Of a stretch of DNA of 64,000 nt, positions 10,971 to 52,237 are shown piece after piece; positions within the stretch are counted from its first letter, which is position 1; each line of letters begins with the position of its first letter. The DNA is from Actinomycetota bacterium (GTDB taxonomy: Bacteria > Actinomycetota > JBBINU01): the NCBI GenBank assembly GCA_037443725.1, contig JBBINU010000011.1, positions 4,833 to 68,832 of the forward strand, in the 5' to 3' direction. The position numbers and the translations under genes were made by a program. Under the pieces are notes generated by a model. The model saw only the letters and a list, made by a program, of their open reading frames with translations, had not been told where the DNA came from and did no database searches.

Positions 10971-11014
10971 GAGCGGGGTGTTGTCCGAGTGAGAGCGGGG
11001 TGTTGTCCGAGTGA
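10971..11014. repeat. 22-bp perfect tandem duplication overlapping the radA start
   Basis: GAGCGGGGTGTTGTCCGAGTGA x2. Confidence 0.95.
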
Positions 11015-12444
11015 GAGCGCGGGCGGAGTCCGTCTGTACGAGCTGCGGGGCACGCCTGCCGAAGTGGGTGGGTCGCTGTCCTGAGTGCGGCTCCTGGGGG
11101 ACGGTAGAAGAGGGGGCCGAAGGGGAGAGGAGGCCCCGGCCCACGTTTCTGCAACTCGGGGAAGTCTCGCCCTTGACCGGGACCCGCCTTCAAACAGGCT
11201 TGGGTGAACTTGACAGGGTGCTGGGCGGAGGGCTGGTGCGCGGCAGCGTGGCCCTGCTCGCGGGCGAGCCGGGGGTGGGGAAGTCGACCCTGGCCCTCCA
11301 GATGCTGTGTGGGGTGGTCCAGGGGGCAGGCGTCGGTCTCCTGATCTCCGCGGAGGAGTCCCCAACACAGGTGGCCATGCGTGCGGCCCGCCTCGGTCCG
11401 GGCTCGGAGGGGATTCTTATCGCCCCCGAGTCGAGCCTCGGCGGAGCTCTGGCTGTGCTCGAGGAGGCGAAACCCGAACTGGCAGTGGTCGACTCCATCC
11501 AGACCATTTACGACACCGACCTGGCTGGCGGTCCCGGAAGCCCTGTCCAGGTCAGGGAATGTGTGGCCAGGTTAGTGAGGGCTGCGAAGGACATGGGGAG
11601 CACCCTCTTGCTCATAGGGCATGTGACGAAGGACGGGACCGTGGCCGGCCCGAAGAGCGTCGAACACCTTGTGGACGTGGTCCTCACTTTCGAGGGCGAG
11701 GCGGGCGGAAGTGTCCGGGTGTTGAGGTCGGCCAAGAATAGGTTCGGGCCCTGCCCGGAGGTGGCCTTCTTCGAGATGACGGAGGGGGGGCTGGTCTGCC
11801 TCTCCGACGTCTCGCGGCTTTTCCTGGCCCGAAGGCCGGACGGCGCGGGCGTGGCCGTGGCCGGAGTGCTCGAGGGGAGCCGGGCTCTCCTGGTTGAGGT
11901 TCAGGCTCTGGTGGCTCCGTCACCCCTAAGTTACCCGAGGCGAGCTGCAGCGGGTCTGGACGGGAGGCGAGTGCCCCTCGTGCTCGCGGTGGTGGAGGCC
12001 AAGCTGGGTGTCCCCGTGTCGAGGGCAGATGTCTTCGCGGCGATCCCGGGCGGGATGACCGTGCATGATCCGGGAGCAGACCTGGCTCTGGCCATGGCTG
12101 TTGTTTCCTGCTGGTCAGGAAGGCCGGTGGCCTCTGATACTGTGGTCATCGGTGAGGTGGGCCTGGGTGGAGAGGTGAGGGCACCCAGGGCTCTGCCGCA
12201 GAGGCTCACTGAGGCGGCACGCATGGGCTTCTCCAGGGTGGTGGTCCCTAAGGGCGTGGCCTTGCCTGGACTCGAAGTCGTCGGGGTCGCAGACGTGGCT
12301 GAGGCGGCCGAAGCCTGCCTGGGTCCGGGCTGGCGGAAGCGTGGGAAGGTCGCGGGTGCAAGCGGCCTTAAGAACGGCCTCCGGCCGAGGGTGGATGTGC
12401 AGCACGCGCCCGACGCCTCTGCCTGCCCTGAGGAGGTGGACTGA
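11011..12444 (+). CDS. radA: DNA repair protein RadA/Sms
   Basis: C4 zinc finger CTSC...CPEC, Walker A GEPGVGKST, DSIQT, KNRFG motif, Lon-like C-terminal domain. Confidence 0.97.
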   Translation: MRARAESVCTSCGARLPKWVGRCPECGSWGTVEEGAEGERRPRPTFLQLGEVSPLTGTRLQTGLGELDRVLGGGLVRGSVALLAGEPGVGKSTLALQMLCGVVQGAGVGLLISAEESPTQVAMRAARLGPGSEGILIAPESSLGGALAVLEEAKPELAVVDSIQTIYDTDLAGGPGSPVQVRECVARLVRAAKDMGSTLLLIGHVTKDGTVAGPKSVEHLVDVVLTFEGEAGGSVRVLRSAKNRFGPCPEVAFFEMTEGGLVCLSDVSRLFLARRPDGAGVAVAGVLEGSRALLVEVQALVAPSPLSYPRRAAAGLDGRRVPLVLAVVEAKLGVPVSRADVFAAIPGGMTVHDPGADLALAMAVVSCWSGRPVASDTVVIGEVGLGGEVRAPRALPQRLTEAARMGFSRVVVPKGVALPGLEVVGVADVAEAAEACLGPGWRKRGKVAGASGLKNGLRPRVDVQHAPDASACPEEVD

Positions 12445-20442: not shown

Positions 20443-21147
20443 GTGAAGGTGAGGGCAGGACCGGAGCTTCTCAGAGGCGATCAGCGGGGCGAGGGGATCG
20501 GAGGGCGCGGCCAGGGGGTGACCTCCCGAGGCCTGGGCGCGGTTTCCGACGAGGAACTCGCTTCTCTCGCTGCGGCTGGCTCCGAGGAGGCGGCCGAAGA
20601 GCTTCTCCGGCGGTACGAGCCTCTGGCGCGGGGACGGGCTCGCTCCTTCTTCCTCCCCGGCGCCGATTGGGAGGATCTCTACCAGGAGGGACTCATCGGG
20701 ATCTTTAAGGCTTTCCGGGATTTCCGGCCTGAAAAGGGGGTTTCCTTCAGGGCCTTCGCGGACCTGTGCGTGACGAGGCAGGTGCTCACGGCGGTCAGGG
20801 CTGCGGCGCGAAGGAAGCATGCACCCCTGAACTTCTCCGTCTCTCTGGACGGCGGGTATCCCCTGGAGGCCGAGGGGCGTCGACTTTCGGAGTCGACACC
20901 TTCCCTCTCCCCTGACCCCGCCGATGTGGTGATAGGGGTGGAGGAGGTGAGGGCCGTGAAGGCCCTGGTACAGAAGGCCCTCTCCGAGCTCGAGGCCGCG
21001 GTTCTGAGCATGTATGTGGAAGGGAGGAGCTACCAGCAGATCGCGGCCGAGCTCCGGATCCGGACCAAGTCCATCGATAACGCCCTGCAGCGGGCAAAGC
21101 GGAAGATAGAGTCCTTCCTTCAGGCGAGGCAGGCTGTCGGGGTCTAG
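20443..21147 (+). CDS. sigH: Sigma factor of the Bacillota SigH/Spo0H family
   Basis: EDLYQEGLIGIFKAFRDF, SFRAFADLCVTRQVLTAVRAAARRKHAPLN, GRSYQQIA, KSIDNALQRAKRK; follows rlmB as in Bacillus. Start may be GTG 20518. Confidence 0.92.
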   Translation: MKVRAGPELLRGDQRGEGIGGRGQGVTSRGLGAVSDEELASLAAAGSEEAAEELLRRYEPLARGRARSFFLPGADWEDLYQEGLIGIFKAFRDFRPEKGVSFRAFADLCVTRQVLTAVRAAARRKHAPLNFSVSLDGGYPLEAEGRRLSESTPSLSPDPADVVIGVEEVRAVKALVQKALSELEAAVLSMYVEGRSYQQIAAELRIRTKSIDNALQRAKRKIESFLQARQAVGV

Positions 21148-23950: not shown

Positions 23951-24688
23951 TCAGGGTGTCTCCGATCGGGCCAGAACGGCCCGGACCACGAGTCTCTGGG
24001 CCGCGGAGAACCTGGGATTGCAGGTGGTGAGGGTGAGAGAGGGGACCGGAGTGGGCTCGATCACCCATAGCTCATCCGGTGCTACCACCCGAACCCACTC
24101 CACCCGGTAAACGAACTTCCCCTCCCTTGTGTAGGCGTAGACCTCATCGCCTGCGGCCAGTCGGTCCAGGCTCCAGAAGGGGGCGCCGTAAGTGGTCCTG
24201 TGCCCGCTCACCACGGCGTTGCCCTTGGAGCCGATGGGAGGCGTTCCGGGCATGTGGCCGGGGCCCCGCTTAAGGTCGGCCGGGGAGACCCCCTCAACCA
24301 CGACCAGGTCCAGGCCGATCTTGGGAATCACCAGGCGGGCAACGGCCGTTCCCGGGACGGGACGGATGGCTGCCGGGGCGGGTTTGAGGCCGGGGTCTGC
24401 CCGCTGCCACCCCTCGACCTGCTTCTTGAGGTCGCTCTGGGCCCTTCTGGTGTAAAGGCCGGTCCCGAAGAGCTCGTAGGTGAGGAAGAGGAGGATGAGG
24501 CAGCCCGCGGCTATGAGGAACCAGCCGCCCAGGCGGAGGAGCCTGGCCGTAGCGGAGCTGCCCGGGCGGAGGCTGGGGATGATGGTTGGGCTCCCGGAGG
24601 CGGGTGCGGCACCTCCCCCCCCGGCCTGCGGGAGGGTGGAGGGCAACGGGCCTTCGGGCCGGAGCGGGTTAGCCAAGGGGCCTCGCAA
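23951..24688 (-). CDS. Class E-type sortase
   Basis: N-terminal TM, LVIPKIGL..VVEG, GPGH, catalytic His (SGHRTTYGAPF), TLTTCNP (Cys), QRL (Arg). Confidence 0.93.
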   Translation of the reverse strand: MRGPLANPLRPEGPLPSTLPQAGGGGAAPASGSPTIIPSLRPGSSATARLLRLGGWFLIAAGCLILLFLTYELFGTGLYTRRAQSDLKKQVEGWQRADPGLKPAPAAIRPVPGTAVARLVIPKIGLDLVVVEGVSPADLKRGPGHMPGTPPIGSKGNAVVSGHRTTYGAPFWSLDRLAAGDEVYAYTREGKFVYRVEWVRVVAPDELWVIEPTPVPSLTLTTCNPRFSAAQRLVVRAVLARSETP

Positions 24689-32513: not shown

Positions 32514-33131
32514 ATGCCTGGCTGGGCCGATAAAGCCCTCGCTGTCCTCGCCATCCTCCTCGCCCTGGGGGGTGTGGGTCTCTTCTCCTACCCGTTCTTC
32601 ACGGACATCTATAGCGAGAAGGTCATCCAGCAGGGCCTGGCGGAGAGGTTCCTCGGCGAGGAGGCAAAAAAGGCCTACACCCAGGGGGATCTCCGGCAGG
32701 GTCAGCCGCTCACCAGGATCATCATTCCCAGGATCGGTGTGGACACCATCGTGGTGGAGGGAACCAGCCCGTCGGCCCTGAGAGCGGGGGCGGGGCATTA
32801 CGAGGGAACCCCCCTTCCCTGCCAGCCCGGGAATGTGGCCATTGCGGGACACAGGACCACGTACGGGCGGCCCTTCAACCGCCTGGATGAGCTCGGGCCG
32901 GGCGATCTTGTCATCCTCGAGACGCCCTTCGAGCGCTGCGAGTATGAGGTGGCTCCGGCCTTCGATGGGCATCCCAATCCCTGGGTCACCACCCCTTATG
33001 ACTGGTCCGTGGTGGCGCCCACGGACTACCCGGCTCTCACCCTCACCACCTGCCACCCGAAGGGAAGCGCGAGGCAGAGGCTGATCCTCCGGGCGAGGCT
33101 GGTGAGAACGGCGCCGAGGTCCGGTGCGTAG
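32514..33131 (+). CDS. Second class E-type sortase
   Basis: IIIPRIGV..VVEG, GAGHY, AGHRTTYGRPF, TLTTCHP, RQRL. Confidence 0.93.
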   Translation: MPGWADKALAVLAILLALGGVGLFSYPFFTDIYSEKVIQQGLAERFLGEEAKKAYTQGDLRQGQPLTRIIIPRIGVDTIVVEGTSPSALRAGAGHYEGTPLPCQPGNVAIAGHRTTYGRPFNRLDELGPGDLVILETPFERCEYEVAPAFDGHPNPWVTTPYDWSVVAPTDYPALTLTTCHPKGSARQRLILRARLVRTAPRSGA

Positions 33132-33244: not shown

Positions 33245-34429
33245 GTGCTAGTGAGGCCGGCCATGAGGGGAACTCTCGTCGTGAGATTTGCGGGGGCCGG
33301 TGCTCTCGCGGCTCTCGCCTCCCTGCTTTTCGCGCCGGCTTCCTCGGCGAGGGCCACGGTGGAGTGGCAGAGCCCCAACGAGGGGGCGGTGCTCAAGGGG
33401 ACGGTGGGGATCAAGGTGGTGGGGAGCGCGGACGGGTTCCTTGAGAGGGTGGAGGAGATAAAGCTCGCAGCGGCGGGGGAGGGTGCCCAGGGGGGGTCGT
33501 GGGCGGGGCAGTGCCCAAAGGACAAGGACTGCAGCACGTTCTCCCTCGAGGCGACCTGGGACACCAGGCGGGGGAGCTCGGGCTTGCTGCCCAACGGGAC
33601 CTACGTTCTCACCGCGGTGGTGAGGACCTCCTCGCCTTTTGGGGGCGACGAAGGGAAAAGCGAGGAGACGGTCTTCGTCTCCAACCCGCCCGCGCGGCCC
33701 GTCTGGAAGGGCGAGGGCGTGGTGAGCTCCCCGGAAGGGGCGGGACCGCGGGTAACCCTCACCTGGGAGGCCGGGAAGGAGCCGGACCTCAGGGAATACT
33801 GGATCTACCGGCAGGCCCCGTGGGAGGAGGCGCCCCAGCCCCTCGCCGTGGTCCCGGGGAGCAGGACCACGTACGAAGACAGAGACTTCGTCGCCCCCTC
33901 CCCGAGGCCCGAGGGGTATGCGGGGAGCTACCGGTACTTCATCGTGGCCTTGAGGCCGAGACCCAGCTCGGATCGGAGCACCAGCGCTAAGTGCCGGCTG
34001 GACGTTAAAGGGAACCCCGATCCCGTAGGGGATCCGTGTATAGCTTCGGAGGCCTCGGAGGTGAGGGGTGTGACGCTCTCCCCGCCGCAGCCGCCGAGCC
34101 CCGGTTCCTCGCCGGCTGGAGCCGCACCGGTTACTGAGGGCGCACCTCCTCCTCCTCAGGCAGCGGCCCCTTCGCTGCCCCGGGCTACCCTTCCCAAGCC
34201 GCCCCCGGTGCAGGACGCCCCCTTTTCCCTGACTCTCCCCTACCCGACTCCCGCGAACCTCGAGGTGGCGGAGCCTGGTGAGGAGTCCCCCGGGCCTCTG
34301 GGCTGGGCGGCACGGGTGGTGAGGAGGCGGGAGCTGGATAAACGTGCCGTCCTGGTTCCTGTGGCCGGGGGGATGATGCTCATGGTCTCCGCCGGTCTGG
34401 CCCTCAAGGCCAGGCAGGGGCTGAGGTGA
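33245..34429 (+). CDS. Exported Ig/fibronectin-III-like protein with C-terminal membrane anchor
   Basis: Signal peptide (AxA site near ASSARA), LPNGTYVLTA, VTLTWE...EPDLREYWIYR...TYED, Pro-rich linker, C-terminal hydrophobic helix plus KARQGLR. Confidence 0.8.
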   Translation: MLVRPAMRGTLVVRFAGAGALAALASLLFAPASSARATVEWQSPNEGAVLKGTVGIKVVGSADGFLERVEEIKLAAAGEGAQGGSWAGQCPKDKDCSTFSLEATWDTRRGSSGLLPNGTYVLTAVVRTSSPFGGDEGKSEETVFVSNPPARPVWKGEGVVSSPEGAGPRVTLTWEAGKEPDLREYWIYRQAPWEEAPQPLAVVPGSRTTYEDRDFVAPSPRPEGYAGSYRYFIVALRPRPSSDRSTSAKCRLDVKGNPDPVGDPCIASEASEVRGVTLSPPQPPSPGSSPAGAAPVTEGAPPPPQAAAPSLPRATLPKPPPVQDAPFSLTLPYPTPANLEVAEPGEESPGPLGWAARVVRRRELDKRAVLVPVAGGMMLMVSAGLALKARQGLR

Positions 34430-41416: not shown

Positions 41417-42073
41417 GTGTTCGCTGTCGTGGTGGGAGGGGGAAAGGTCGGGAGGGCCCTCACGAGGACCCTGCTTAGCCAGGGGCACGAGGTGGTGGTC
41501 ATCGACAAGGACCCTGTGGTCTACTCGCACCTCCTGGAGGAGTTCCCTGAGTCCGCCTTTTTTGGCGATGCCACGGAGGCAAGGACTCTGAGGCAGGCGG
41601 GGGTGGAGAGAGCGGATGCGCTGGCTGCAGTGACCGGCCAGGACCAGGCAAACCTGGTCGCGGCGGAGCTGGCTCTCAAGAAGTTCAAGGTATCTCATGT
41701 GGTGGCCAGGGTGAACGACCCGAGGAACGCCGGTATCTTTCGGGCTGCTGGAATAGCCCACGCTGTTGACGTAACGGCGATGATCATGGCCACCGTCACC
41801 CAGGAGCTCGAGATGGATGAGATCCTCCGGCTGGTGGATCTGAGACGTGGGAATCTCGAGCTCGTAGAGGTGAACCTCCCGGAAGGGGCGACGGCGGCTG
41901 GGAGGGCGATAAGGGAGGTGGAGCTCCCGCCGGGCTCGGCCGTGGTAGCGGTCTGCACCCCGGAGGCTGTCATCCCGGCCCCTCCCGACCATGTCCTCGC
42001 TCCGGGCGAGGGGGTTCTCGCGGTGGTACCCCCGGGGAGGGAGGAGGATCTCCGAAAGGCACTGCTCGGATAA
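41417..42073 (+). CDS. trkA: TrkA/KtrA family protein (RCK_N + RCK_C)
   Basis: VVGGGKVG, FGDAT, VTGQDQANL, VARVNDPRN, C-terminal AGRAIREVELP domain. Confidence 0.88.
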   Translation: MFAVVVGGGKVGRALTRTLLSQGHEVVVIDKDPVVYSHLLEEFPESAFFGDATEARTLRQAGVERADALAAVTGQDQANLVAAELALKKFKVSHVVARVNDPRNAGIFRAAGIAHAVDVTAMIMATVTQELEMDEILRLVDLRRGNLELVEVNLPEGATAAGRAIREVELPPGSAVVAVCTPEAVIPAPPDHVLAPGEGVLAVVPPGREEDLRKALLG

Positions 42074-42139
42074 GGGTTTCTCGCAGGGACTTCTTCTCCC
42101 TCACCCTCGAGGGCGATGACGCCTTTCCCCTCGGCCTGG

Positions 42140-42169
42140 TTGACCGGGGCCAGCCGCCCGTGCTAGCCT
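42140..42169 (+). promoter_or_regulatory. Sigma-A-type promoter with extended -10
   Basis: TTGACC-18 bp-TAGCCT with TG at the extended position. Confidence 0.55.
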
Positions 42170-42214
42170 GCCGCGGAATTTGCGGCCGTTCCCAGTGGGC
42201 CGCGAGTTGTTTGA

Positions 42215-43246
42215 GTGCGGCAAGTGCATGGCGTAAGGCGGGGAACGGGGGAGAGGCGGGCCCGAAAGGGCCAGGGCAGGAAGGTAGCCCTCGGGGTCCT
42301 GGTAGCTCTTGCTCTGCTTCTCCCCGCAAGCGCTGGGGCCAGGACGAGCCGGGACGACGTTTCCAGGCTCCAGGCTGAGCTGAACAGGGCGGCGGCCGAG
42401 TACAACGCTGCTCTCTCCCGCTACGAGGGGCTGCAGAGGAGGACGGAGCTCGCCCGCGCCCGCGCTGCCGAGTCCCGCGCCCGCTACGAAGCGGTGGCCA
42501 GGAACATCCGGCTAAGGGCGCGCCGGGCCTACGAGGCGGGGGCCTCCGACTTCCTCGAGGCCCTACTCCTCGCTCCGGACCTCACCGCTGTCCTGAACAG
42601 ACTTGCCTGGTTGAACCGGATCGCCCAAGGGGATGCCGCCAGCCTCGCGGAGCTGAGGAAGGCGGCCTCGGAGTGGGGCGCCGCCCAGAAGGATCTGGAG
42701 GCCTCCCTGGGGCGCGAGAGGGCGGCCCTTGAGAGGGCTGAGGCCCTGAGGAAGAAGCTCGAGGAGAAGCTGGAAAAGGCGAGGATCGCTCTGGCTGCCG
42801 AGGCCTCCAGGCCGAGGACGGTGAGGCCGGCCAGGGTGAGGATCACCGGTAACATGGCATGCCCCGTGGCTGGCCCCCACGCCTTCTCCAACGACTGGGG
42901 CGCTCCGAGGAGCGGCCATCGCCACCAGGGGACGGACATCTTCGCTCCTTACGGCACGCCTGCTGTGGCCATCACCTCCGGCTACATCAAGTACCTGAAG
43001 AGCGGAGGCTCGGGGGGCATTATGCTCTGGCTCTGGGGCGACGACGGAAACGAGTACTTCTACGCTCACCTCTCGGGGTACGCACCGGGGACGTCGGTGG
43101 GCCGAAGGGTTGGCACGGGCGAGGTGGTCGCCTACGTTGGGAATTCGGGGAATGCCCGGGGCTCCAGCCCCCACCTGCACTTCGAGATACACCCCGGCGG
43201 GGGGGCTCCGGTGAACCCCTACCCCGTTCTGGTCCAGATCTGCTGA
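42215..43246 (+). CDS. Coiled-coil M23 family peptidoglycan endopeptidase
   Basis: Signal peptide, long coiled coil, HQGTD (HxxxD), YAHL, HLHFE (HxH). Confidence 0.92.
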   Translation: MRQVHGVRRGTGERRARKGQGRKVALGVLVALALLLPASAGARTSRDDVSRLQAELNRAAAEYNAALSRYEGLQRRTELARARAAESRARYEAVARNIRLRARRAYEAGASDFLEALLLAPDLTAVLNRLAWLNRIAQGDAASLAELRKAASEWGAAQKDLEASLGRERAALERAEALRKKLEEKLEKARIALAAEASRPRTVRPARVRITGNMACPVAGPHAFSNDWGAPRSGHRHQGTDIFAPYGTPAVAITSGYIKYLKSGGSGGIMLWLWGDDGNEYFYAHLSGYAPGTSVGRRVGTGEVVAYVGNSGNARGSSPHLHFEIHPGGGAPVNPYPVLVQIC

Positions 43247-43338
43247 GTCGCCAGCCCCGCCCGTCCGCGAGATCCCGCCGCCGCGACCTTAGGGTGTTGC
43301 CCGGCTGCCCGCAGCGGGAGGGGTGGAATAATAGCCTC

Positions 43339-43923
43339 ATGAATCGCGGGTCTAGTGACGAAACAGAAAGCGTGACCCTGGCTCGCCGCGCGGTGGACCG
43401 CATTCTCTCCCCCTCCTACCTGGAGGGGGTTTCCCAGCTCGGTAGGGAGGAGATTTCCACGAAAAGGAGGGAGTGCCTCAGGGAGGAGGAGCGCCTCTCG
43501 TACGTCCGCAGGATCCTTCAGGCCCGTCTGGACCTCGTGAGGTTCGTCCTGTCCAGGAGGGAGCGCGGGGACCCCCTGAGCCTCTCCGAGCTTGTCCGAG
43601 CGCTGCCCGGAGTTCTGAGTCCTTCCGTTGGTGAGCCGAGGGGAGGGGCTGTTGCGGTCAGGGTGCCTTCGGGTCCCGCGCGGCGGCGCGAGGAGAGGGA
43701 CGCCTGGGGCGAGGTGCTGCTCCGGCTCCCGGAGATGGGCCGGGACGAGCTGGAGCTGCTCGCCAGGGAACTCGAGGAGGAGGAGAGAAGGGTCTCGGAG
43801 ATGAGGAGAGGGGTCCAGAGAGTCCTGGACGCCCTCACGGCTCTGCTCGCGGAGAGGTGGCGGGAGGAGCTTCGGGTTGGGGGGGAGCGGGTTGGGGATG
43901 AGGAAGATTCTGGTGGTGGATGA
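43339..43923 (+). CDS. rsiG: RsiG (AmfC)-family anti-sigma factor with two c-di-GMP-binding motifs
   Basis: AVDRILSPSYLEG N-terminus; E-X3-S-X2-R-X3-Q-X3-D twice: EERLSYVRRILQARLD (43486-43533) and ERRVSEMRRGVQRVLD (43783-43830). Confidence 0.88.
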   Translation: MNRGSSDETESVTLARRAVDRILSPSYLEGVSQLGREEISTKRRECLREEERLSYVRRILQARLDLVRFVLSRRERGDPLSLSELVRALPGVLSPSVGEPRGGAVAVRVPSGPARRREERDAWGEVLLRLPEMGRDELELLARELEEEERRVSEMRRGVQRVLDALTALLAERWREELRVGGERVGDEEDSGGG

Positions 43924-44293
43924 CGACCCCGTCTTCCGCGAGCTCCTCGCCGTGGTCCTTGGCGAGGAGTCGGTCAGGGTGGAGCAGGCAAGAGATGGGC
44001 TCGAGGCGCTGGACGCGGCGGAGCGACTCCGGCCGGAGGCGGTGGTTCTAGATTTGATGATGCCGGGGCTTGATGGTTGGGGTTTCCTTGCCGGTCTCCG
44101 CTCCCGGCCTGATCTTGCAGGTACGGAAGTGGTGGTGGTTACGGGGAGCGACGATCCGGCTGATAGGGAGAAGGCCGCGGCCTTGGGCTGCTCTGCGTAC
44201 CTGGTGAAGCCCTTCAGCCCCACTCGGCTCATCGAGGCGGTCACCTCGGCTCTAAAGGCAGGGGGTTTGGAGGGGACGCAGGATGAGGGCTGA
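43898..44293 (+). CDS. Single-domain response regulator
   Basis: ILVVDDD, phosphoacceptor in VVLDLMMPGLDG, VVVTG, YLVKPF; overlaps the rsiG end. Confidence 0.93.
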   Translation: MRKILVVDDDPVFRELLAVVLGEESVRVEQARDGLEALDAAERLRPEAVVLDLMMPGLDGWGFLAGLRSRPDLAGTEVVVVTGSDDPADREKAAALGCSAYLVKPFSPTRLIEAVTSALKAGGLEGTQDEG

Positions 44294-45056
44294 CTGGCTA
44301 AAGGCGGCGAGGGGTGAGGCTCCGAGCAGCGAGAACTCGGGTGTTGGTCCCGAGGGGCGGGCTCGCTCGCAGGCCGTCGAGCCTCAGGTGCTGGGTCAGC
44401 TCCTTGTCTTTGCGGCCGAGCTCAAGGAGCTCTACCGCAACCTCAAAAGGAGGACGAAAGAGCTGGAGGATGCCCTCTTCAGGCTGGAGCAGGCCTACCG
44501 GAGCACCGTGGAGACCATGGCCTTTGTCGTGGAGTTCAGGGACTGGGGAACGCGGCAGCATGTGGAGAGGGCTGCCCGGTATGCCATGGCCGTGGCCCGG
44601 AAGCTCGCCCCCGAGCTCGCTCAGGACCCGGCCCTCTATTACGGTTTTCTCCTACATGACGTGGGGAAGGTGGGCGTTCCCGACTCCCTCCTCGGCAAGA
44701 CGGGACCGCTCGACGAGATGGAGAGGGCGGTCATGAGGACCCACACCATCATCGGGGCGATGATCATCTCGGGAATCCCTGGGCTTGAGAGGATCGCCCC
44801 CATCATCCGCCATCACCACGAGCGTTGGGATGGGCACGGGTACCCGGACGGGCTCAAGGGTGAGGAGATCCCTCTCGGGGCGAGGATCTTCGCCGTGGCA
44901 GATGCCTTCGATGCCATGACGACCGACAGACCGTATCGGAAGGCCCTCGACGTGCAGGAAGCCCTGGACGAGCTGAGGCGGGGGGCGGGCACCCACTTCG
45001 ATCCGACCGTGGTGGAAACCTTTATCTCCCTGGTGGAAGAGGTTGGGGAGGAGTGA
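44283..45056 (+). CDS. HD-GYP c-di-GMP phosphodiesterase
   Basis: RD..T..H, LHDVGK, H..IG, HHERWDGHGYP, ADAFDAMTTDRPYRK; short N-terminal coiled coil only. Confidence 0.93.
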   Translation: MRADWLKAARGEAPSSENSGVGPEGRARSQAVEPQVLGQLLVFAAELKELYRNLKRRTKELEDALFRLEQAYRSTVETMAFVVEFRDWGTRQHVERAARYAMAVARKLAPELAQDPALYYGFLLHDVGKVGVPDSLLGKTGPLDEMERAVMRTHTIIGAMIISGIPGLERIAPIIRHHHERWDGHGYPDGLKGEEIPLGARIFAVADAFDAMTTDRPYRKALDVQEALDELRRGAGTHFDPTVVETFISLVEEVGEE

Positions 45057-45071
45057 GGCCGGGCTGGAAGG

Positions 45072-45812
45072 GTGATAGCCCTCCTCTCGGACGTCCACGG
45101 AAACCTGCCAGCCCTCGAGGCTGTCCTGGCCGAGCTCGGGCGGCACTCCCCTGACTCCTGGGTCTTCCTGGGTGATGCGGTGGGCTACGGCGCCTGGCCC
45201 TCCGAAGTCTGCCTCGCCCTTCGGGCCACTCGCCCTCTCGCGGTGGCCGGCAACCACGACCTGGCTGTGCTGGGTCGGGTGGACCCAGAGCTTTTCAACC
45301 CCGAGGCTGAGGAGGCCGTGCTCTGGACGAGGCGGGTGCTCACGGACGCGGCCAAGGCGTTTCTTGAGGCCATGCCGCTCGAGGCGGAGGTCGGGGGAGC
45401 CCTTCCCTTCCACGCCGTTCACGGCAGCCCCCTGGACCCGGCCATGCGGTACATCCTGGACCTCAGGGAGGCCTGGAGGGCTTTGGGGGCCTCGCGGCAC
45501 CCGCGGCTGCTGGTGGGACATACTCACGTGGCGGGTCTCTTCGTGTTCGAGCCCGGAGGGAGGGGAAGCTACCTGCCCCTTAGGCCCGGGGAGCCCCAGG
45601 AGCTCGATACCGGGAGGCTGTATGTGGTGAACCCCGGTAGTGTGGGGCAGCCCAGGGATGGGGACCCGAGGGCTGCCGCGGCCCTCCTTGACCCCGAAAA
45701 GGCGAGGATCCTGCCCCTTAGGGTCAACTACGATGTGGAGGCAGCGGGCCGGGAGATCCTCAGAGCGGGTCTTCCGCCTTTTTTCGCCTTCAGGCTCAGG
45801 CTCGGGATCTAG
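45072..45812 (+). CDS. Calcineurin-like metallophosphoesterase
   Basis: SDVHGN, GDAVGYG, GNHD, HGSP, GHTH, NPGSVGQPRDGDPRA. Confidence 0.92.
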   Translation: MIALLSDVHGNLPALEAVLAELGRHSPDSWVFLGDAVGYGAWPSEVCLALRATRPLAVAGNHDLAVLGRVDPELFNPEAEEAVLWTRRVLTDAAKAFLEAMPLEAEVGGALPFHAVHGSPLDPAMRYILDLREAWRALGASRHPRLLVGHTHVAGLFVFEPGGRGSYLPLRPGEPQELDTGRLYVVNPGSVGQPRDGDPRAAAALLDPEKARILPLRVNYDVEAAGREILRAGLPPFFAFRLRLGI

Positions 45813-45872
45813 GGTGACTCTGGGCTAGTGCTTGCAACAGTTAAACGTCGCCGAGTAACATGGCTCACGGCC

Positions 45873-46385
45873 ATGGAGAGGGTGAGCAGCATGCGGGGAG
45901 AGGTGGGGAGGTTCATAAGGGAGCAGAGGCGGAATGCGCAGATCTCTCTGAGGAGGCTGGCGAAGATCGCCGGGATCTCGAACCCCTACCTCTCCCAGAT
46001 AGAGAGGGGTCTTCGAAAACCCTCCGCCGAGATACTGCAGGCGATAGCCAGGGCCCTCAGGATCTCGGCGGAGACCCTGTACGTCAAGGCGGGCATCCTG
46101 GAGGAGAGGGACGGGGGGAAGGACCTCGTCCGGGAGATCCTGGAGGACCCCTTCCTCAAGGAGAAGCAGAAGGAGGTCCTGATAGAGATATACCGGGCCT
46201 TCCGCAGGCAGAACCGGGCCGAGATGCCCCTGGGGGCGGTACCGGCCTCAGGGGTGCGGCGGCGACGGCGGGAAACCGGCGGGGCTCCCGCCGTCGAGCC
46301 GGAGGAGGGCGGTCCGGCGGTCGGGTCGCCGGAAGGAGGGATGGGGGGTTCGGCGGCCGAATCCGACCGGGCAGCCGGGGGGTAG
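45873..46385 (+). CDS. XRE-family HTH regulator (Rv0474-like)
   Basis: FIREQRRNAQISLRRLAKIAGISNPYLSQIERGLRKPSAEILQAIARALRISAETLY; start may be 45891. Confidence 0.9.
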   Translation: MERVSSMRGEVGRFIREQRRNAQISLRRLAKIAGISNPYLSQIERGLRKPSAEILQAIARALRISAETLYVKAGILEERDGGKDLVREILEDPFLKEKQKEVLIEIYRAFRRQNRAEMPLGAVPASGVRRRRRETGGAPAVEPEEGGPAVGSPEGGMGGSAAESDRAAGG

Positions 46386-46483
46386 GAAGGGGATCCGAGC
46401 CCATCGGCCTTGCCCGCTCCCGTAGGCTGCCCTTGACCGCGACGGCGGCTTCTTTGGGGGGCCAGGGCCGGCGCCGCTTCGGA

Positions 46484-47299
46484 TCAGCCCAGACTGACAC
46501 CGGCCCTGGCCAGCAGGTGGGCTAGAGGCCAGAGGAGGGCCGCGAAGAGCACGACGGCCCCTCCCGGCGGAAGGTTAAGGAAAGCCGAGGCGATGAGGCC
46601 GAGGATTCCTGCCGCTTCCCCCCCCACGAGGGCGAGGAGGCCGGTGGCCCTAAACCCCGAGGCGAGCTGGGTGGCGGCGGCTACGGGGAGAGCCATGAGG
46701 GCGCCGACCAGGAGGAGCCCCACGATACGCATGCCGAGGACGACCACGGCAGCCGCGGCGAGAAGGACTACGAGCTGAAGGGAACCGGTTGGCAGGCCCT
46801 GGGCGCGGGCGGCCTCTTCGTCCAGGGATGCCAGCGCCAGGGGGCGGAAGAAGAGGGCGAGAAGGGTGACGCCGACCGAGGCGGCGGCCACGGCGAGGAG
46901 GGTCTCACCCGTGCTCAGGGTTAGGACGCTGCCGAAGAGATAGCCGTAAATGGCGCCGCCGAAGCGTCCCGCCAGGGCTGCCAGGGTCAGGCCGGCTGCG
47001 ATGCCGGTGTAGAAGATGATAGCGAGGGCGGTGTCGGCAACCCCTCTTCGGAGGAGGTACTGAAGGACGAGGACGGAGACGAGGGCCAGGGCCGCCGCGC
47101 CGGCCCCGGCAGGGAGCCCCAGGAGAAAGGCGAGGCCCACGCCGGCGAAGGCGAGGTGGCCCAGGCCGTCACCGAGGAGGGCAAGACGCCTGGCCACAAG
47201 GAAGGTCCCCACCAGAGGGGCGAGGGCGGCGACGGCTGCAGTGGCAACGAACGCCCGGAGCATGAAGGGGGAGATTATGAGATCGGCCAGGCCCACCAC
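46484..47299 (-). CDS. znuB: Zn/Mn ABC transporter permease
   Basis: LLGDGLGHLAFAG, YLFGSVL, IVGLLLVGALMALP. Confidence 0.9.
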   Translation of the reverse strand: MVGLADLIISPFMLRAFVATAAVAALAPLVGTFLVARRLALLGDGLGHLAFAGVGLAFLLGLPAGAGAAALALVSVLVLQYLLRRGVADTALAIIFYTGIAAGLTLAALAGRFGGAIYGYLFGSVLTLSTGETLLAVAAASVGVTLLALFFRPLALASLDEEAARAQGLPTGSLQLVVLLAAAAVVVLGMRIVGLLLVGALMALPVAAATQLASGFRATGLLALVGGEAAGILGLIASAFLNLPPGGAVVLFAALLWPLAHLLARAGVSLG

Positions 47300-47301
47300 T
47301 T

Positions 47302-48054
47302 CTAGGCCCTCCTTTCGGCCCTGAGCTCTTGGCCATGGTGGCAGACCCCCTCCTCAGGGGAGGGTAGGTGGTCGGGAACTTCCAGAGGTAACCCGCACCA
47401 GACCAGGGTGCGGTCGAGGGCCGCCACCCTCTGGAGGCCGCGCTCGACCAGGCCCTCCAGGCCGTGGCAGACAACCACCAGGGTTCTTCCCTCCCCGTGG
47501 ATCTCCTCAAAGACCCGGAACATCGCTTCCCTGGTCTCCCGGTCGACGCCTGCCGCAGGCTCGTCCAGGAGGAGGAGATCGGCCCCGGAGACGAGGGCCC
47601 TGGCCACAAGCACCCTCTGGAGCTCACCGCCGGAGAGCTGGTGGACAGGTCTGCGGGCGAGGTGGGGTATGCCCAAGAGCTCCAGGGCTTCGGACACCCG
47701 CGCCCTGACTCTCGAGGTGAAGGGCGCTGGGAGCCACGATCTTATCAGGCCCATTCCTACCAGCTCCTCGACGCTCAGGGGAAAACCGCCGCCGGGAGCG
47801 GCGAAGCGCTGGGGTGCGTACCCCAGCCTCTCCCACGCCCGGAACCGGCTGAGGTCCTCCCCGAAGAGCCGGATGCGCCCCGCTGCGAGCGGTACGAGTC
47901 CCAGGGCGGCCCTCAGGAGGGTGCTCTTTCCGGCGCCATTCGGCCCGATGAGGGCGAGGTACTCACCCTCCTCCACGGTGAGGCTGACCGCCTCGAGGAT
48001 CATTCTCCCGGCCTTCCCGACGCTCACCTCTTCCCACTCAAGGACAGGAGGCAT
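47302..48054 (-). CDS. znuC: Zn/Mn ABC transporter ATPase
   Basis: GPNGAGKST, LSGGELQRV, LLDEP, VVCH. Confidence 0.92.
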   Translation of the reverse strand: MPPVLEWEEVSVGKAGRMILEAVSLTVEEGEYLALIGPNGAGKSTLLRAALGLVPLAAGRIRLFGEDLSRFRAWERLGYAPQRFAAPGGGFPLSVEELVGMGLIRSWLPAPFTSRVRARVSEALELLGIPHLARRPVHQLSGGELQRVLVARALVSGADLLLLDEPAAGVDRETREAMFRVFEEIHGEGRTLVVVCHGLEGLVERGLQRVAALDRTLVWCGLPLEVPDHLPSPEEGVCHHGQELRAERRA

Positions 48055-48055
48055 C

Positions 48056-48973
48056 CTACCCCCCGGGAGTCTGCCGGGCGCAGCCAAGTCCTTCCGCCAG
48101 GGAGCGGAGGTTCTCACGCATGACGGAGAAGTAGTCCTCCCCCTGCGGGGGCCGGACCTCGAGGGGGTCGAGGAGTAGCAGGGGCAGGGAGTGCTCCCGG
48201 GCGAAGGATTCGAGAGCAGGCGTGGACACGCCTCTCTCGGCGAAGGCCGCTCGGATCTTTCCCTCCTTCACCAGGGACGCCAGCTCGGCGAGGCGCTCGG
48301 GGCTCGGCTCACCCTCAGGGGCGAGACCGACCATGGAGTGGGCCTGGAGCCCGTAGCGGGAGGCGGGGTAGGTGAAGAAGTCGTGGAAGGTGAGGAAGCC
48401 TCTTCCCTGGCAGGGTGCGAGGGCATCGCGATACTCCCTGTCCAGCTCGCTCAGGCGGGAGCCAAGGGCGTCGGCGCGGGCGGCGAACCAGGAGGCGTTC
48501 TCGGGATCGGCTTCAGCCAGGGCCTTCCTTAAGGTCTCCGTTGCCGCTGAGAGGAGGGAGGGGTCGAGCCAGGTATGCATGTCTGCGCCCTGGCCCACGC
48601 GGCGCAGCTCCACCCCGGACGAGGCCGCCACGACCAGGGGCTTGCCCGGCGTCAGATCCCTGATCACCCTGTCCAGAGCAGGTTGGAACCCCGGGCCCTG
48701 GTAGAAAAGGACCTGGGCACGACGGATGGAGGAAACGTCCTGGGGCGAGGGTTCCCAGTCGTGGGGCTCGACTCCTGCTGGTGTTAGCTCTATCACCCTG
48801 ATCCTCTCCCCGCCCACTTGCTCGGCGACGAAGGCCAGGGGGTAGAAGGCGGCGGCCACCTGCGTTCCCCCGCCGCCCGTCCTCGCGCAACCCGAGGCGA
48901 GAAGGGCGAGAACCGCAGCTATCCCTCGCAGGTACGCCCAGCCTCGAAGAAGTGGCGGACGCCGACTGTTCAT
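48056..48973 (-). CDS. znuA: Zn/Mn ABC transporter substrate-binding lipoprotein
   Basis: Lipobox LASGC; EPHDWEP, HTWLDP, FHDFF metal ligands. Confidence 0.9.
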   Translation of the reverse strand: MNSRRPPLLRGWAYLRGIAAVLALLASGCARTGGGGTQVAAAFYPLAFVAEQVGGERIRVIELTPAGVEPHDWEPSPQDVSSIRRAQVLFYQGPGFQPALDRVIRDLTPGKPLVVAASSGVELRRVGQGADMHTWLDPSLLSAATETLRKALAEADPENASWFAARADALGSRLSELDREYRDALAPCQGRGFLTFHDFFTYPASRYGLQAHSMVGLAPEGEPSPERLAELASLVKEGKIRAAFAERGVSTPALESFAREHSLPLLLLDPLEVRPPQGEDYFSVMRENLRSLAEGLGCARQTPGG

Positions 48974-49407
48974 CCGCTTCCTTCCTCGCAGGTTGCGCAG
49001 AGGCCCGTGAACTCCAGGGTGTGCCCCTCCACCCGGAAGCCCAAGGCCCTTCCCGTCTTTTCCCCGGTCCTCCCGAGGGCGGCCTCCAGGCGATGCATCT
49101 CATCGCTGGGGATCTCGACGGCCCTGAGGCAGGAGCGGCAGATGATGTGGTGGGAGTGGGGGCGTGGGCAGAGGTGGAAAAGGGACCCCCTCTCCCCCTT
49201 CACCACGGCCACTTCGCCCGAGCGCCACAGGGATGCGAGGGCCCGGTAGAGGGTAGCCCTCCCGAGTCCTGGCCTCGCCCTCCTGGCCAGGGCAAGGATG
49301 TCCCTAGCAGGAAGGAGATGCCCACCCTCGAGAGCTCTTCTCACCACGGCAGCCGCTTCGGTGCTTACTCCCCGCGGTCGGCCCGGCCTCCTGCGCTTCT
49401 GGCCCAT
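48970..49407 (-). CDS. zur: Fur-family regulator, probably Zur
   Basis: GRATLYRAL, HSHHIICRSC, GLCATC; heads the znu operon. Start ATG 49407. Confidence 0.85.
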   Translation of the reverse strand: MGQKRRRPGRPRGVSTEAAAVVRRALEGGHLLPARDILALARRARPGLGRATLYRALASLWRSGEVAVVKGERGSLFHLCPRPHSHHIICRSCLRAVEIPSDEMHRLEAALGRTGEKTGRALGFRVEGHTLEFTGLCATCEEGSG

Positions 49408-49415
49408 TTTGCGGT

Positions 49416-49436
49416 TATTGAGACGCTGTCTCAAAA
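49416..49436. promoter_or_regulatory. Zur/Fur-box-like operator
   Basis: TATTGAGACGCTGTCTCAAAA, perfect core TTGAGAC-N3-GTCTCAA, 9 bp upstream of zur. Confidence 0.78.
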
Positions 49437-49512
49437 ATAGCATACCAGTCGGGTGCGTTCCTGTCGGCGGTCACAAACTGGCCCCCGGCGGTCTTCTGGT
49501 AACCTGCCGTGC

Positions 49513-50562
49513 GTGTCTTACCGGGTGCTGGTGGAGGGGGCCGAGGCGCTGGAGGTGCGCGGGCGGGCCCTGGAGGAGCTGGTTCGCTCCGATCCACGGG
49601 CGACCGTGTTCCACCTCCCTGCGTACCAGCGCTCGTGGTGGAGGTGGCTCGGAGAAGGGCGGGCCCGAGTGGTCTTGGTGGAAAGAGGCGGCGAGCTCCT
49701 GGGAGCCGCTTATTCCCACGTGGCCAGGGGTTTCCTTAGGTTCATGGGAGGGACCGACGTTACCGATTACCAGTGGCCCTTGGCCCTGGCCGGGGAGGAA
49801 GAGGCGGTGGCGCGGGCGCTGGCCGGCTTTTTCAGGGAGGAGCCTTGCCGGGCGCTGTCCTTGAGGCATCTGGACGAGGTCTGGGCGCGGCTGCTGGCTT
49901 GCTGCCTCGAGGAGGTGGGCCTCAAGGCCCGAGTGGCCCCCGACGCCCCGAGCCCTCAGATCTCGCTGGAGGGTGGCTACGCGGCCTACATGGACAGGCT
50001 CAGCTCCAAGCAGAGGCACGAGGTGAGGAGGAAACTGCGGAGGGCGGCCGAGGGCCTCCGCGGTCTCCGGGTGAGGCTCTATATGGGAGAGGCCGCCATC
50101 CCCCTCCTCCCCACCTTTTTCCGGCTGCACGCTTCTAGTTACGGCGGCAAGGGGGGGTTTCTCCTTCCATCGCGCCGGCTTTTCCTAGGTGCCCTGGCGC
50201 GGAGTCTCGGCCCCACCTTCGGGCTTGCCCTTCTGGAGGAGAGCGGCGAGGGGTCTCCCGTCCCACCTGCCGTTCAGCCCGTCAGCTCGGCCAGGCTGGG
50301 GGATCGCCCCTCGGCCCTCGCTGCCTGCCTGCTCTTCCTTTGGCGCGAGAGTGTCCTCCTGTACAACAGTGCCTTCGACAGGGGCATGGCCCATGTTTCT
50401 CCCGGAGTCGTACTGGTCCAGTCGCTCCTGGCCTGGGCCGCTCGCGAAGGGTACCGGACCTTTGACTTTCTCCGGGGAGGCGAGGAGTACAAGCAGAGGC
50501 TCGGGGCCGTTCCTCGGGAGCTCTACAGGGTGGACTATCTCGCAGCGCGGGAGGGCCCGTGA
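49513..50562 (+). CDS. GNAT family (CelD/BcsL, Acetyltransf_6) acyltransferase
   Basis: LSSKQRHEVRRKLRR, LLYNSAFD, SPGVVL, FDFLRGGEEYKQRLG; start approximate. Confidence 0.85.
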   Translation: MSYRVLVEGAEALEVRGRALEELVRSDPRATVFHLPAYQRSWWRWLGEGRARVVLVERGGELLGAAYSHVARGFLRFMGGTDVTDYQWPLALAGEEEAVARALAGFFREEPCRALSLRHLDEVWARLLACCLEEVGLKARVAPDAPSPQISLEGGYAAYMDRLSSKQRHEVRRKLRRAAEGLRGLRVRLYMGEAAIPLLPTFFRLHASSYGGKGGFLLPSRRLFLGALARSLGPTFGLALLEESGEGSPVPPAVQPVSSARLGDRPSALAACLLFLWRESVLLYNSAFDRGMAHVSPGVVLVQSLLAWAAREGYRTFDFLRGGEEYKQRLGAVPRELYRVDYLAAREGP

Positions 50563-51776
50563 GGAGGGAGGGTGTGGCCTTCCTCAGCCTTCACACCTCT
50601 CCCCTGGACCTGCCAGGAGAGGGAGCTGGCGGGGGGATGAACGTGTACGTGCGGGAGATGGCCGTCTCCCTGGCCCGTCTCGGTCTTGCTGTGGACATAT
50701 ACACTCGGGCTTCCTCTCCCGGCCTCCCCCCCGTGGTGGAGCTTGCTCCCGGGGTACGCCTGTTTCACCTCGAGGCCGGCCCGGCGCGGCCCCTCCCCAA
50801 GGGGGCCCTCGCCCGGCACCTCGCGGCGTTCCTCTGCTCGTTCATGGGAACCTCCCAGGGGCTGGCAGGGGCGAGTTACTCCCTCGTTCACGCCCACTAC
50901 TGGCTGGCCGGATGGGCGGCGAGTCTGGCTGCGGAGAGGTGGGGGATACCGCTGGTCCAGTCCTTTCACACGCTGGCCAGGAGGAAGGAGCGAGCTGGTT
51001 TTCCCGAGCCGCCGATAAGGAGCTCGACGGAGGCAAGGCTTGCCCGTCAGGCATCGCTCGTGGTGGCCATGAGCCGGTCCGAGGCGGAGGACCTGGAGAG
51101 GCTGTACGGGGTGCCGCCCGACCGGGTGGTGGTGGCCGCTCCCGGAGTGCGCACGGAGGTGTTTCGACCGCGGCCGCGGGAGGGCCAGGCCTTCAGGCAT
51201 TCTCTAGGGATGGAGAGGGGTCCCCTGCTGCTTTTCGCGGGAAGGCTTGAACCCCTCAAGGGGCCCGAGCTCTTTGTGAGGGCCCTCTGTTTTCTTCCCG
51301 AGGCCCAAGGGCTTGTGGTGGGAGGGGGGAGCGCCCCGGGGGAGGGGCGGAGGCTGGAGAGGCTCGTTTACGAGCTGGGGTTGGAGCGGAGGGTGCGTTT
51401 CCTCCGCCCCCTGCCGCAGGAGAGGCTGGCTGTGGCTTACTCCGCAGCGGACCTGGTGGTTGTCCCCTCGGCGGCGGAGAGCTTCGGCCTGGTGGCTCTG
51501 GAGGCGCAGGCCTGCGGTACTCCGGTGGTGGCGGTGAGGACGGGAGGGTTGCAGGAGGTGGTGGCGGACGGCAGGACGGGGGTCCTGCTCGGCGAGAGGA
51601 ACCCGGAGGCCTTCGCCCGCGCCATCGCCGCCCTTCTCGCCTCCCCCGCGCTTCTTGCCTCCATGCGGGAGAGGGCCAGGCGGAGGGCTTCCAGGCAGAC
51701 CTGGGAGGCGGCAGCCTCGGTACTGGTCGGAGCCTACCGGCGGATCCTCGAGGCCGAGAGGCTCGCCTCGGCGTGA
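50559..51776 (+). CDS. mshA: D-inositol-3-phosphate glycosyltransferase (mycothiol pathway)
   Basis: LHTSPL..PG...GGMNVYVRE, HAHYWLAG, SFHTLA, GRLEPLKG, ESFGLVALEAQACGTPVVA; followed by a YbjN gene. Confidence 0.85.
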   Translation: MRREGVAFLSLHTSPLDLPGEGAGGGMNVYVREMAVSLARLGLAVDIYTRASSPGLPPVVELAPGVRLFHLEAGPARPLPKGALARHLAAFLCSFMGTSQGLAGASYSLVHAHYWLAGWAASLAAERWGIPLVQSFHTLARRKERAGFPEPPIRSSTEARLARQASLVVAMSRSEAEDLERLYGVPPDRVVVAAPGVRTEVFRPRPREGQAFRHSLGMERGPLLLFAGRLEPLKGPELFVRALCFLPEAQGLVVGGGSAPGEGRRLERLVYELGLERRVRFLRPLPQERLAVAYSAADLVVVPSAAESFGLVALEAQACGTPVVAVRTGGLQEVVADGRTGVLLGERNPEAFARAIAALLASPALLASMRERARRRASRQTWEAAASVLVGAYRRILEAERLASA

Positions 51777-52237
51777 AGGAGGTGGTAGGTACGGAGCGGG
51801 ATCCGAGGGAGCGGGCGGCTGCCATCATCCAGCAGTACTTGGACAGGGAGGGGATCCGCCACCAGCGCTCGGGGGAGTGGGAGTGGCTGGTGGAGATGGA
51901 AGGCGAGGTTCGCAGATCGGTCACGGCCCTCATCGTGCTGGGGGAGAGGACGGTCCTGGTGGAGTCCTTTTTCATGCGCCGCCCTCCCCAGAACGAGGCC
52001 GAGTTCTACCGTTACCTTCTCGCCAAGAACCTCGGCTTCTATCTCTACCGGTTCGCTGTGGACGAGCTCGGTGACGTTTACCTCCTGGCCCAAGTTCCCA
52101 TCGCCTGCCTGGACGAGGACGAGCTGGACAGGCTCCTCGGAACCCTCCTCACCTACTCCGACGGGAGCTTCAATCCCGCCCTGCGGATCGCATACGCCTC
52201 GGAGCTTATGGGAGACGGGGAAGGGCGGGGGGACTAG
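51773..52237 (+). CDS. YbjN domain protein
   Basis: FMRRPPQNEAEFYRYLLAKN...FAVDELGDVYL...LDRLLG; usual partner of mshA. Confidence 0.85.
   Translation: MKEVVGTERDPRERAAAIIQQYLDREGIRHQRSGEWEWLVEMEGEVRRSVTALIVLGERTVLVESFFMRRPPQNEAEFYRYLLAKNLGFYLYRFAVDELGDVYLLAQVPIACLDEDELDRLLGTLLTYSDGSFNPALRIAYASELMGDGEGRGD

Follow-up and report, generated by a model that had tools for sequence, protein, structure and literature searches.

A twin-motif RsiG gene packed with receiver and HD-GYP genes in a divergent actinobacterial lineage

We analysed a 64 000-nucleotide stretch of DNA (the window) from an Actinomycetota bacterium (contig JBBINU010000011.1 of assembly GCA_037443725.1), in which a gene for an RsiG-family anti-sigma factor is followed on the same strand by genes for a stand-alone receiver, a short HD-GYP phosphodiesterase and a metallophosphoesterase. 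Sequence comparison indicates that at least two further actinobacterial lineages, both distant, have the rsiG–receiver–HD-GYP cassette as well, which supports the view that it is not a local accident, and we regard it as a real, new version of the known RsiG switch. We think it reasonably probable, if well short of certain, that the three genes form an operon in which a receiver-gated HD-GYP enzyme disarms RsiG and frees a sigma factor.

RsiG and its two motifs

The rsiG gene (43339..43923, + strand) encodes a protein of 194 residues that matches Pfam PF22802 in two stretches, with a score of 63 bits (cut-off 27, E = 2e-17). The protein carries two exact copies of the motif for cyclic di-GMP (c-di-GMP) binding, E-X3-S-X2-R-X3-Q-X3-D: the first is E50-X3-S54-X2-R57-X3-Q61-X3-D65 (EERLSYVRRILQARLD, 43486..43533, + strand) and the second E149-X3-S153-X2-R156-X3-Q160-X3-D164 (ERRVSEMRRGVQRVLD, 43783..43830, + strand). 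These are the only matches to the pattern in the six frames of the window, and two motifs never arose together in 200 000 shuffles of RsiG. Of 56 homologues, 54 have the motifs at the same distance of 99 residues. Among PDB sequences, the Streptomyces venezuelae RsiG (6pfj, E = 2e-10) matches best and is collinear over both helices, while the single-motif Rubrobacter RsiG structures found in the same type of search align to the first helix only. The length of the protein and its two motifs rule out a single-motif, homodimeric RsiG of the type found in Rubrobacteria and Thermoleophilia (approx. 85–120 residues).

The structure of RsiG was modelled with AlphaFold2 from 30 collected sequences (predicted local distance difference test (pLDDT) score 83), giving long helices at residues 36–75 and 135–191. 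When the model was compared with the PDB using Foldseek, the top four matches were RsiG chains of 6pfv and 6pfj, with probability 1.0 and TM-scores of 0.62–0.66 (normalised to the target); every other match had E > 0.7. The predicted fold is thus an antiparallel coiled coil as in 6pfj and 6pfv. The first-pass annotation of this DNA had claimed two exact motifs and a twin-motif RsiG, and the Pfam match, six-frame motif count, model and Foldseek comparison all bear this out: on sequence and predicted structure, this is a true twin-motif RsiG.

The protein is nonetheless highly divergent. An exhaustive HMMER search yielded 654 RsiG homologues at E ≤ 1e-3, the best of which, excluding RsiG itself, is 40% identical. 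A word-indexed protein search with RsiG alone matched only the query, and the same type of search with a profile from alignment A1 gave 20 matches, mostly on short contigs. Both motifs and the fold as a whole are clearly constrained.

We compared the two halves of RsiG with those of other twin-motif proteins. The N-terminal half had a mean score of 94 against other N-terminal halves and 44 against other C-terminal halves; for the C-terminal half the values were 96 against C-terminal and 48 against N-terminal halves. Each half therefore matches its counterpart about twice as well as the opposite half, which rules out an independent duplication in this lineage. The halves are orthologous to those of other twin-motif RsiGs and so go back to the same duplication. 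It had been suggested that this RsiG bears on when the motif duplicated. The twin-motif state holds, but the event is the one shared with other twin-motif RsiGs, and its date moves only if the lineage is basal; were the host placed at or below the Rubrobacteria/Thermoleophilia node, the duplication would be older than currently proposed. Twin-motif RsiG has already been reported in Acidimicrobiales (PMC8325347). As a separate observation, similarity between the two motif helices within one protein is highest in the window RsiG and the HD-GYP-linked clade (window, L004–L008, L014, L018, L021, L022, L037 and L056), with BLOSUM scores of 66–80; over the 55 twin-motif RsiGs that were scored, those of the window and the linked loci among them, the median is 43.

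The receiver and the HD-GYP enzyme

The second gene (43898..44293, + strand) encodes a CheY-like response regulator of 131 residues, counted from its ATG, which matches Pfam Response_reg (2.3e-26, 92.6 bits) and has no output domain. The residues D8, D9, D10, D52, T82 and K104 are all present, as had been noted at first pass, and are invariant among orthologues. By its sequence, the protein has the acidic pocket, acceptor aspartate and Thr and Lys switch residues of a phosphorylatable receiver domain.

The third gene (44283..45056, + strand) encodes a short HD-GYP protein of 257 residues with matches to Pfam HD_5 (3.5e-41) and HD, which also aligns to the HD-GYP part of the NCBIfam model for NosR-family REC-HD-GYP phosphodiesterases. 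The motifs HDVGK (H125-D126) and HHERWDGHGYP (H178-H179-E-R-W-D-G-H-G-Y-P188) and the other metal ligands are intact. Matches in the PDB at comparable E-values include V-cGAP3 (5z7c), PmGH (4mcw) and PA4781 (4r8z). In the AlphaFold2 model (pLDDT 81), residues 1–22 are disordered, a single 64-residue helix spans residues 23–86 and the catalytic domain follows at 90–254. The enzyme is thus predicted to have no sensor domain; helix 23–86 is conserved among orthologues.

The claim that all catalytic motifs are present in a sensor-less enzyme stands for the HD and HHExxDGxGYP motifs and for the modelled architecture, but not for the third-metal ligand. Gly89 occupies the position of PmGH E185, where the RsiG-linked orthologues have S, G, L or T, and the lysine of the RxxK motif is replaced by Arg. 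The lack of an acidic residue here rules out the trinuclear, PmGH-type subclass that hydrolyses c-di-GMP to GMP. HD-GYPs without an E185-type ligand form a binuclear class of known c-di-GMP phosphodiesterases that usually stop at pGpG (Galperin and Chou, 10.1101/2021.11.05.467447), and since the third-metal glutamate is missing, the product here is probably pGpG.

Receiver control seems to be normal for this subfamily, as 34 of the 80 best homologues of the enzyme that are not linked to rsiG have a REC domain, either fused at the N-terminus (19 of 80) or encoded by an adjacent gene (15 of 80). This frequency agrees with an RpfG-type module that has been split, its receiver acting on the enzyme in trans. 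Membership of the RpfG family in the strict sense, as one polypeptide, is ruled out: the window has two genes that overlap by 11 nt in different frames, and the orthologues are split too.

Organization of the locus

All four genes, described at first pass as co-oriented and overlapping or nearly touching, were found as such on the + strand. The overlap is 26 nt between rsiG and the receiver gene and 11 nt between the receiver and HD-GYP genes, and a gap of 15 nt separates the HD-GYP gene from the metallophosphoesterase gene (45072..45812, + strand; 246 residues, Pfam Metallophos_2). At both overlaps the downstream gene has a Shine–Dalgarno sequence of its own and a start codon inside the preceding gene. 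The receiver most likely starts at ATG 43898, 10 nt past a GGAG and within the 3′ end of rsiG; TTG 43877 and TTG 43892 are alternatives, the latter being used in the gene call of the NCBI metagenome-assembled genome (MAG). The same four-gene order is present on the NCBI MAG contig (GCA_964494185.1) and on a separately assembled Logan contig from another run (L003), so the locus is not an assembly artefact.

Signals for transcription were sought around the cluster. A candidate extended −10 promoter element, TGGAATAAT (43324..43332, + strand), was read from the sequence and ends 7 nt 5′ of the rsiG ATG; if real, it would imply a leaderless operon mRNA. Relatives have a conserved TACAAT approximately 40 nt upstream of rsiG, rather than TGGAATAAT. 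A sigma-70 consensus scanner found no promoter and no −35/−10 pair within 42000–46600. The WhiG2 promoter motif T(A/C)AA-N16-GCCGA has two matches in the window, which are both intragenic and not above chance, and none 5′ of rsiG. A terminator-like hairpin with a T-run lies in the last metallophosphoesterase codons (45750..45786, + strand) and is a possible, if weak, operon end; sites of this kind are no more frequent than expected from shuffles.

Conservation of the cassette

Conservation was analysed from both ends of the cassette. On the RsiG side, genomes, one for each species, were scanned with a pattern built from the narrower RsiG alignment A3, which yielded 80 loci (A1 and A2, both wider, varied too much to serve as seeds, and the single RsiG protein gave no match as a query in such a scan). 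On the HD-GYP side, we took the 80 best metagenome homologues of the window enzyme, which are 40–51% identical to it.

An HD-GYP gene lies directly 3′ of rsiG in 11 of the 80 rsiG loci, and these enzymes are 52–57% identical to that of the window. All 11 species are uncultured MAGs that fall in one RsiG clade, the soil MAG clade. A receiver gene, its product 45–48% identical to the window receiver, sits between the two in eight of the 11, and the genes are spaced by 4-nt overlaps or 1-nt gaps. For the 69 loci left over, no strict HD-GYP, GGDEF or EAL motif was found up to 8 kb from rsiG, and none of the 80 unlinked HD-GYP homologues has an rsiG beside it. In a tree, the window HD-GYP and the 11 linked enzymes split from these 80 homologues with a Shimodaira–Hasegawa-like approximate likelihood ratio test (SH-aLRT) value of 91.

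A further locus, L164 from a JGI metagenome, encodes, in order, H+-pyrophosphatase (H+-PPase), pyrophosphatase, PatA_N, RsiG, receiver, HD-GYP, asparaginase II, XRE, Acetyltransf_6, GT4 and YbjN. The H+-PPase upstream and the XRE, Acetyltransf_6, GT4 and YbjN genes downstream are shared with the window. Compared with both of the other lineages, the L164 proteins are approximately 40% (RsiG), 45% (REC) and 50–54% (HD-GYP) identical, which points to a third, separate cassette lineage. Overall, receiver orthologues (eight genome loci and L164) are 44–48% identical to the window receiver, and pairwise identities among the three lineages are approximately 40% for RsiG, 45% for REC and 50–57% for HD-GYP. 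The lineages are about as far apart as actinobacterial classes, which suggests that the cassette is old. Synteny conservation had been put forward as a check on the first-pass annotation, and the recurrence of rsiG–REC–HD-GYP or rsiG–HD-GYP in 11 species and in L164, always inside one and the same rsiG…XRE…mshA–ybjN block, provides it.

The metallophosphoesterase fared differently. It had been counted as part of the switch, yet no homologue is encoded in any of 164 RsiG- or HD-GYP-bearing loci from elsewhere, which rules it out as a member of the conserved module. The protein has a full-length match to PDB 3rqz (6.5e-45), a structural-genomics entry for a metallophosphoesterase that carries no functional assignment and no c-di-GMP link, and it weakly resembles the Ap4A hydrolase SapH (3qfm). 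It is best seen as a probable lineage-specific passenger.

We found no description of an rsiG–REC–HD-GYP operon in those parts of the literature that are open to searching. Nor did we find a report of an HD-GYP or receiver neighbour of Streptomyces rsiG: the term ‘HD-GYP’ occurs neither in PMC8325347 nor in the 2026 WhiG survey (10.64898/2026.01.14.699351).

A proposed mechanism and its alternatives

The analysis establishes which families the proteins belong to, their motifs and predicted folds, how tightly the genes are packed and that their synteny is conserved; we infer c-di-GMP binding, the sigma partner and control of the enzyme by the receiver, along with the direction of that control. 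In the explanation that we favour, rsiG, the receiver gene and the HD-GYP gene would make up one translationally coupled operon. RsiG, acting as a twin-motif monomer with a c-di-GMP dimer between its two antiparallel helices, would hold a WhiG2-type sigma-28 factor encoded elsewhere; RsiG has been reported always to co-occur with a WhiG homologue, specifically WhiG2 (10.64898/2026.01.14.699351). The receiver and the short HD-GYP would correspond to an RpfG-type response regulator whose REC and HD-GYP domains are made as separate chains. Once phosphorylated by an unlinked histidine kinase, the receiver would dock on the long helix that is conserved at the N-terminus of the HD-GYP enzyme and switch its phosphodiesterase activity. 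Because the enzyme would be made stoichiometrically with RsiG, it could serve as a dedicated and possibly local c-di-GMP sink, with pGpG the likely product of a binuclear HD-GYP. As c-di-GMP falls, perhaps locally, RsiG would be disarmed and the sigma factor freed. There is a precedent, reported in 2026, in Streptomyces, where RmdB is a phosphodiesterase proposed to act locally on the RsiG–WhiG node (PMC13232838).

A number of observations weigh against this explanation. Three loci (L005, L006 and L014) have rsiG–HD-GYP without a receiver, so that the link does not depend on the latter. In the tree, the branch of the window RsiG is very long and is not resolved beside the other HD-GYP-linked RsiGs, and horizontal transfer of the cassette is possible. 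The top PDB match of the HD-GYP enzyme is a cGAMP-specific protein, and the c-di-GMP enzyme PmGH has the same E-value. No sigma-28 gene is present in the 64-kb window, whose sole sigma gene is of the ECF type (20443–21147), and no histidine kinase or diguanylate cyclase is encoded near the cassette. Finally, the locus sequence was found in DNA runs from subsurface metagenomes and in no RNA run.

Other readings of the cassette have to be set beside receiver-gated disarming of RsiG. The receiver and HD-GYP genes could be an ordinary pair for global c-di-GMP degradation that was inserted once into the rsiG–asparaginase/XRE block, has since been kept there by linkage and affects RsiG solely via the bulk c-di-GMP pool. 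HD-GYPs of this subfamily are found in many other contexts, and 69 of the 80 rsiG loci lack REC-HD-GYP, the gene right behind rsiG being that for asparaginase II or XRE. However, the cassette genes keep their order, their strand and their near-zero spacing in three lineages whose proteins differ by 50–60% in sequence, start codons lie inside the preceding gene and the linked HD-GYPs occupy a branch of their own, so that we consider this reading unlikely. Alternatively, the phosphorylated receiver might act on RsiG or on the sigma factor itself, as an antagonist reminiscent of partner switching, with the HD-GYP enzyme constitutive. The overlap of rsiG with the receiver gene at every receiver-bearing locus would suit this arrangement, as would the antagonism of RsiG by Streptomyces RmdB through protein contact and not catalysis alone (PMC13232838). 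The three loci that dispense with the receiver, together with the frequent fusion or adjacency of REC and HD-GYP among the closest homologues that have no RsiG, make it distinctly unlikely.

The substrate and the target could also differ from those proposed. Were the HD-GYP protein to hydrolyse 3′3′-cGAMP or pGpG in vivo, or to act chiefly as a scaffold, rather than to degrade c-di-GMP, RsiG might be tied to another nucleotide signal. The match to V-cGAP3, the loss of the third-metal glutamate in all linked orthologues and the Arg in place of the RxxK lysine are in keeping with this idea, which we nevertheless find very unlikely given that neither the HD and HHExxDGxGYP motifs nor the other metal ligands are disrupted, that the c-di-GMP enzymes PmGH and PA4781 score equally well, that binuclear HD-GYPs include known c-di-GMP phosphodiesterases and that the neighbouring gene encodes a c-di-GMP receptor. 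The least probable of these readings is that RsiG has lost its WhiG partner in this lineage, or controls a different sigma factor or some other protein. Its extreme divergence, with at most 40% identity to any homologue, could be taken that way, but the constraint on both motifs and the fold and the constant pairing of RsiG with WhiG in published surveys (10.64898/2026.01.14.699351) argue against it.

Receiver-gated disarming of RsiG can also be extended into a broader evolutionary account, in which the ancestral twin-motif locus would have been a self-contained rsiG–REC–HD-GYP cassette, the anti-sigma factor being accompanied by a phosphodiesterase under phosphorelay control. In a form of local signalling, this enzyme would remove c-di-GMP directly from the RsiG–(c-di-GMP)2–sigma complex by protein contact; repeated losses of the cassette would have followed, Streptomyces being among the lineages concerned; and the metallophosphoesterase added in the thermophile would clear the pGpG left by the binuclear HD-GYP. 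Taken as a whole this account is speculative, and we give it a small, though not negligible, probability.

Comparison with known systems

The closest known counterpart is the S. venezuelae RsiG (AmfC)–(c-di-GMP)2–sigma WhiG complex (6pfj, 6pfv; PMC7005675). Both proteins are of the twin-motif, monomeric form with the motifs on two long antiparallel helices; the S. venezuelae protein aligns collinearly over the full length of the window RsiG and is its sole structural match, and the chromosomal neighbourhoods are broadly shared. Sequence identity is only 34%, however, and in the window rsiG heads a presumed operon with receiver and HD-GYP genes. The window host is of a unicellular type, uncultured and probably thermophilic, and its sigma partner is inferred. 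The Rubrobacter radiotolerans (RsiG)2–(c-di-GMP)2–WhiG complex (7lq2–7lq4; PMC8325347) has the same motif and family, a deep actinobacterial host and a presumed output other than sporulation. Those proteins are single-motif homodimers of 84–118 residues, in contrast to the 194-residue, twin-motif protein described here.

Members of the RpfG family (Xanthomonas RpfG, TM0186 and PA4108) likewise use a receiver and an HD-GYP domain as a signalling unit. In the window, REC and HD-GYP are separate, the enzyme has a 64-residue N-terminal helix in place of the REC domain, and it is of the binuclear class and genetically tied to a c-di-GMP receptor. The parallel with S. venezuelae RmdB lies in a c-di-GMP phosphodiesterase proposed to work locally on the RsiG–WhiG node; RmdB is a GGDEF-EAL protein encoded elsewhere that binds WhiG via its GGDEF domain (PMC13232838), whereas the window enzyme is an HD-GYP protein from the presumed rsiG operon.

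How c-di-GMP leaves the very stable RsiG–(c-di-GMP)2–WhiG complex is an open question in the field. An RsiG hard-wired to a minimal, receiver-gated HD-GYP would be a much simpler natural system for studying local versus global c-di-GMP signalling, and the operon would connect two-component phosphorylation directly to the release of a sigma factor. Proteins of a probably thermophilic host may also suit structural work well.

The chromosomal block around rsiG

Asparaginase II is encoded directly after rsiG in most lineages and after the HD-GYP gene in the cassette-bearing relatives, so that REC-HD-GYP occupies, within an old syntenic block, the interval from rsiG to asparaginase II/XRE. The metallophosphoesterase gene of the window takes the position of the relatives’ asparaginase II. 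The gene for an XRE-type helix-turn-helix regulator follows (45891..46385, + strand; Pfam HTH_3), and its homologues, 53–69% identical, are found downstream of rsiG in 71 of the 80 loci and in L164. This regulator is far better conserved than RsiG (approx. 40%) and is always encoded between the rsiG unit, which it follows closely, and the MshA-like GT4 gene; it could be a fixed partner of the rsiG locus. The distal end of the block, as identified with Pfam, comprises Acetyltransf_6, the MshA-like GT4 and YbjN genes (49531..52237, + strand), GT4 being present in 34 and YbjN in six of the 80 rsiG loci. That the window gene occupies the same chromosomal position as other rsiG genes also speaks for its identity. 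Between the XRE gene and this distal group, a znuA/ABC/permease operon (znuABC) and a Fur-family gene occupy 46484–49443 on the minus strand. L164 has no such genes there, so that znuABC-fur looks like an insertion into the block. In L164 (84–3679), the H+-pyrophosphatase gene 5′ of the cassette is called as two fragments and is directly followed by an IS110-family transposase gene.

Directly 5′ of rsiG lies a gene for an M23 peptidase (42215..43246, + strand; Pfam Peptidase_M23), with an N-terminus that forms a PcsB-like coiled coil. The M23–rsiG adjacency is also seen in two Acidimicrobiia MAG loci (L033 and L071, 48–51% identity) and on a metagenome contig (L166, 54%), and the soil MAG clade has a GcvT-like gene at that place.

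Host lineage and the rest of the window

The window is an oriC-proximal actinobacterial region, with genes for ParB, TrxB, MurJ with DUF6049, RadA, DisA, CarD, CysS, CrgA and DUF881, and derives from subsurface metagenomes. For RadA (11011–12444), the best non-self match among 5.8 billion proteins is only 53% identical, and the named matches are from Nitriliruptorales and unclassified Actinomycetota. In a tree of GT4 proteins the window branch has a length of 1.2, matching the branches of the Acidimicrobiia and Nitriliruptoria representatives. The combined fraction of residues IVYWREL is 0.445 over 10 557 residues, which by the Zeldovich relation gives approximately 80 °C; this value is rough, and GC content may have biased it. 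These features point to a host that is probably a very divergent, isolated and heat-loving actinobacterial lineage, and make the earlier label of a deep-branching thermophile plausible. Its proper phylogenomic placement would be worthwhile.

The ECF-type sigma gene of the window follows cysS and rlmB; since its product consists of no more than regions 2 and 4_2, it does not qualify as WhiG. A regular expression for region 2 of group 1–3 sigma factors had no match in the window or in loci L001–L163. Two sortase genes are present (23951–24688 and 32514–33131), the second of them directly followed by a 394-residue open reading frame (33245–34429) that has no Pfam hit and may encode a sortase substrate. 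A DUF763 protein (9536–10612, E = 7.7e-120) is encoded between a gene for a tRNA-editing domain and radA.

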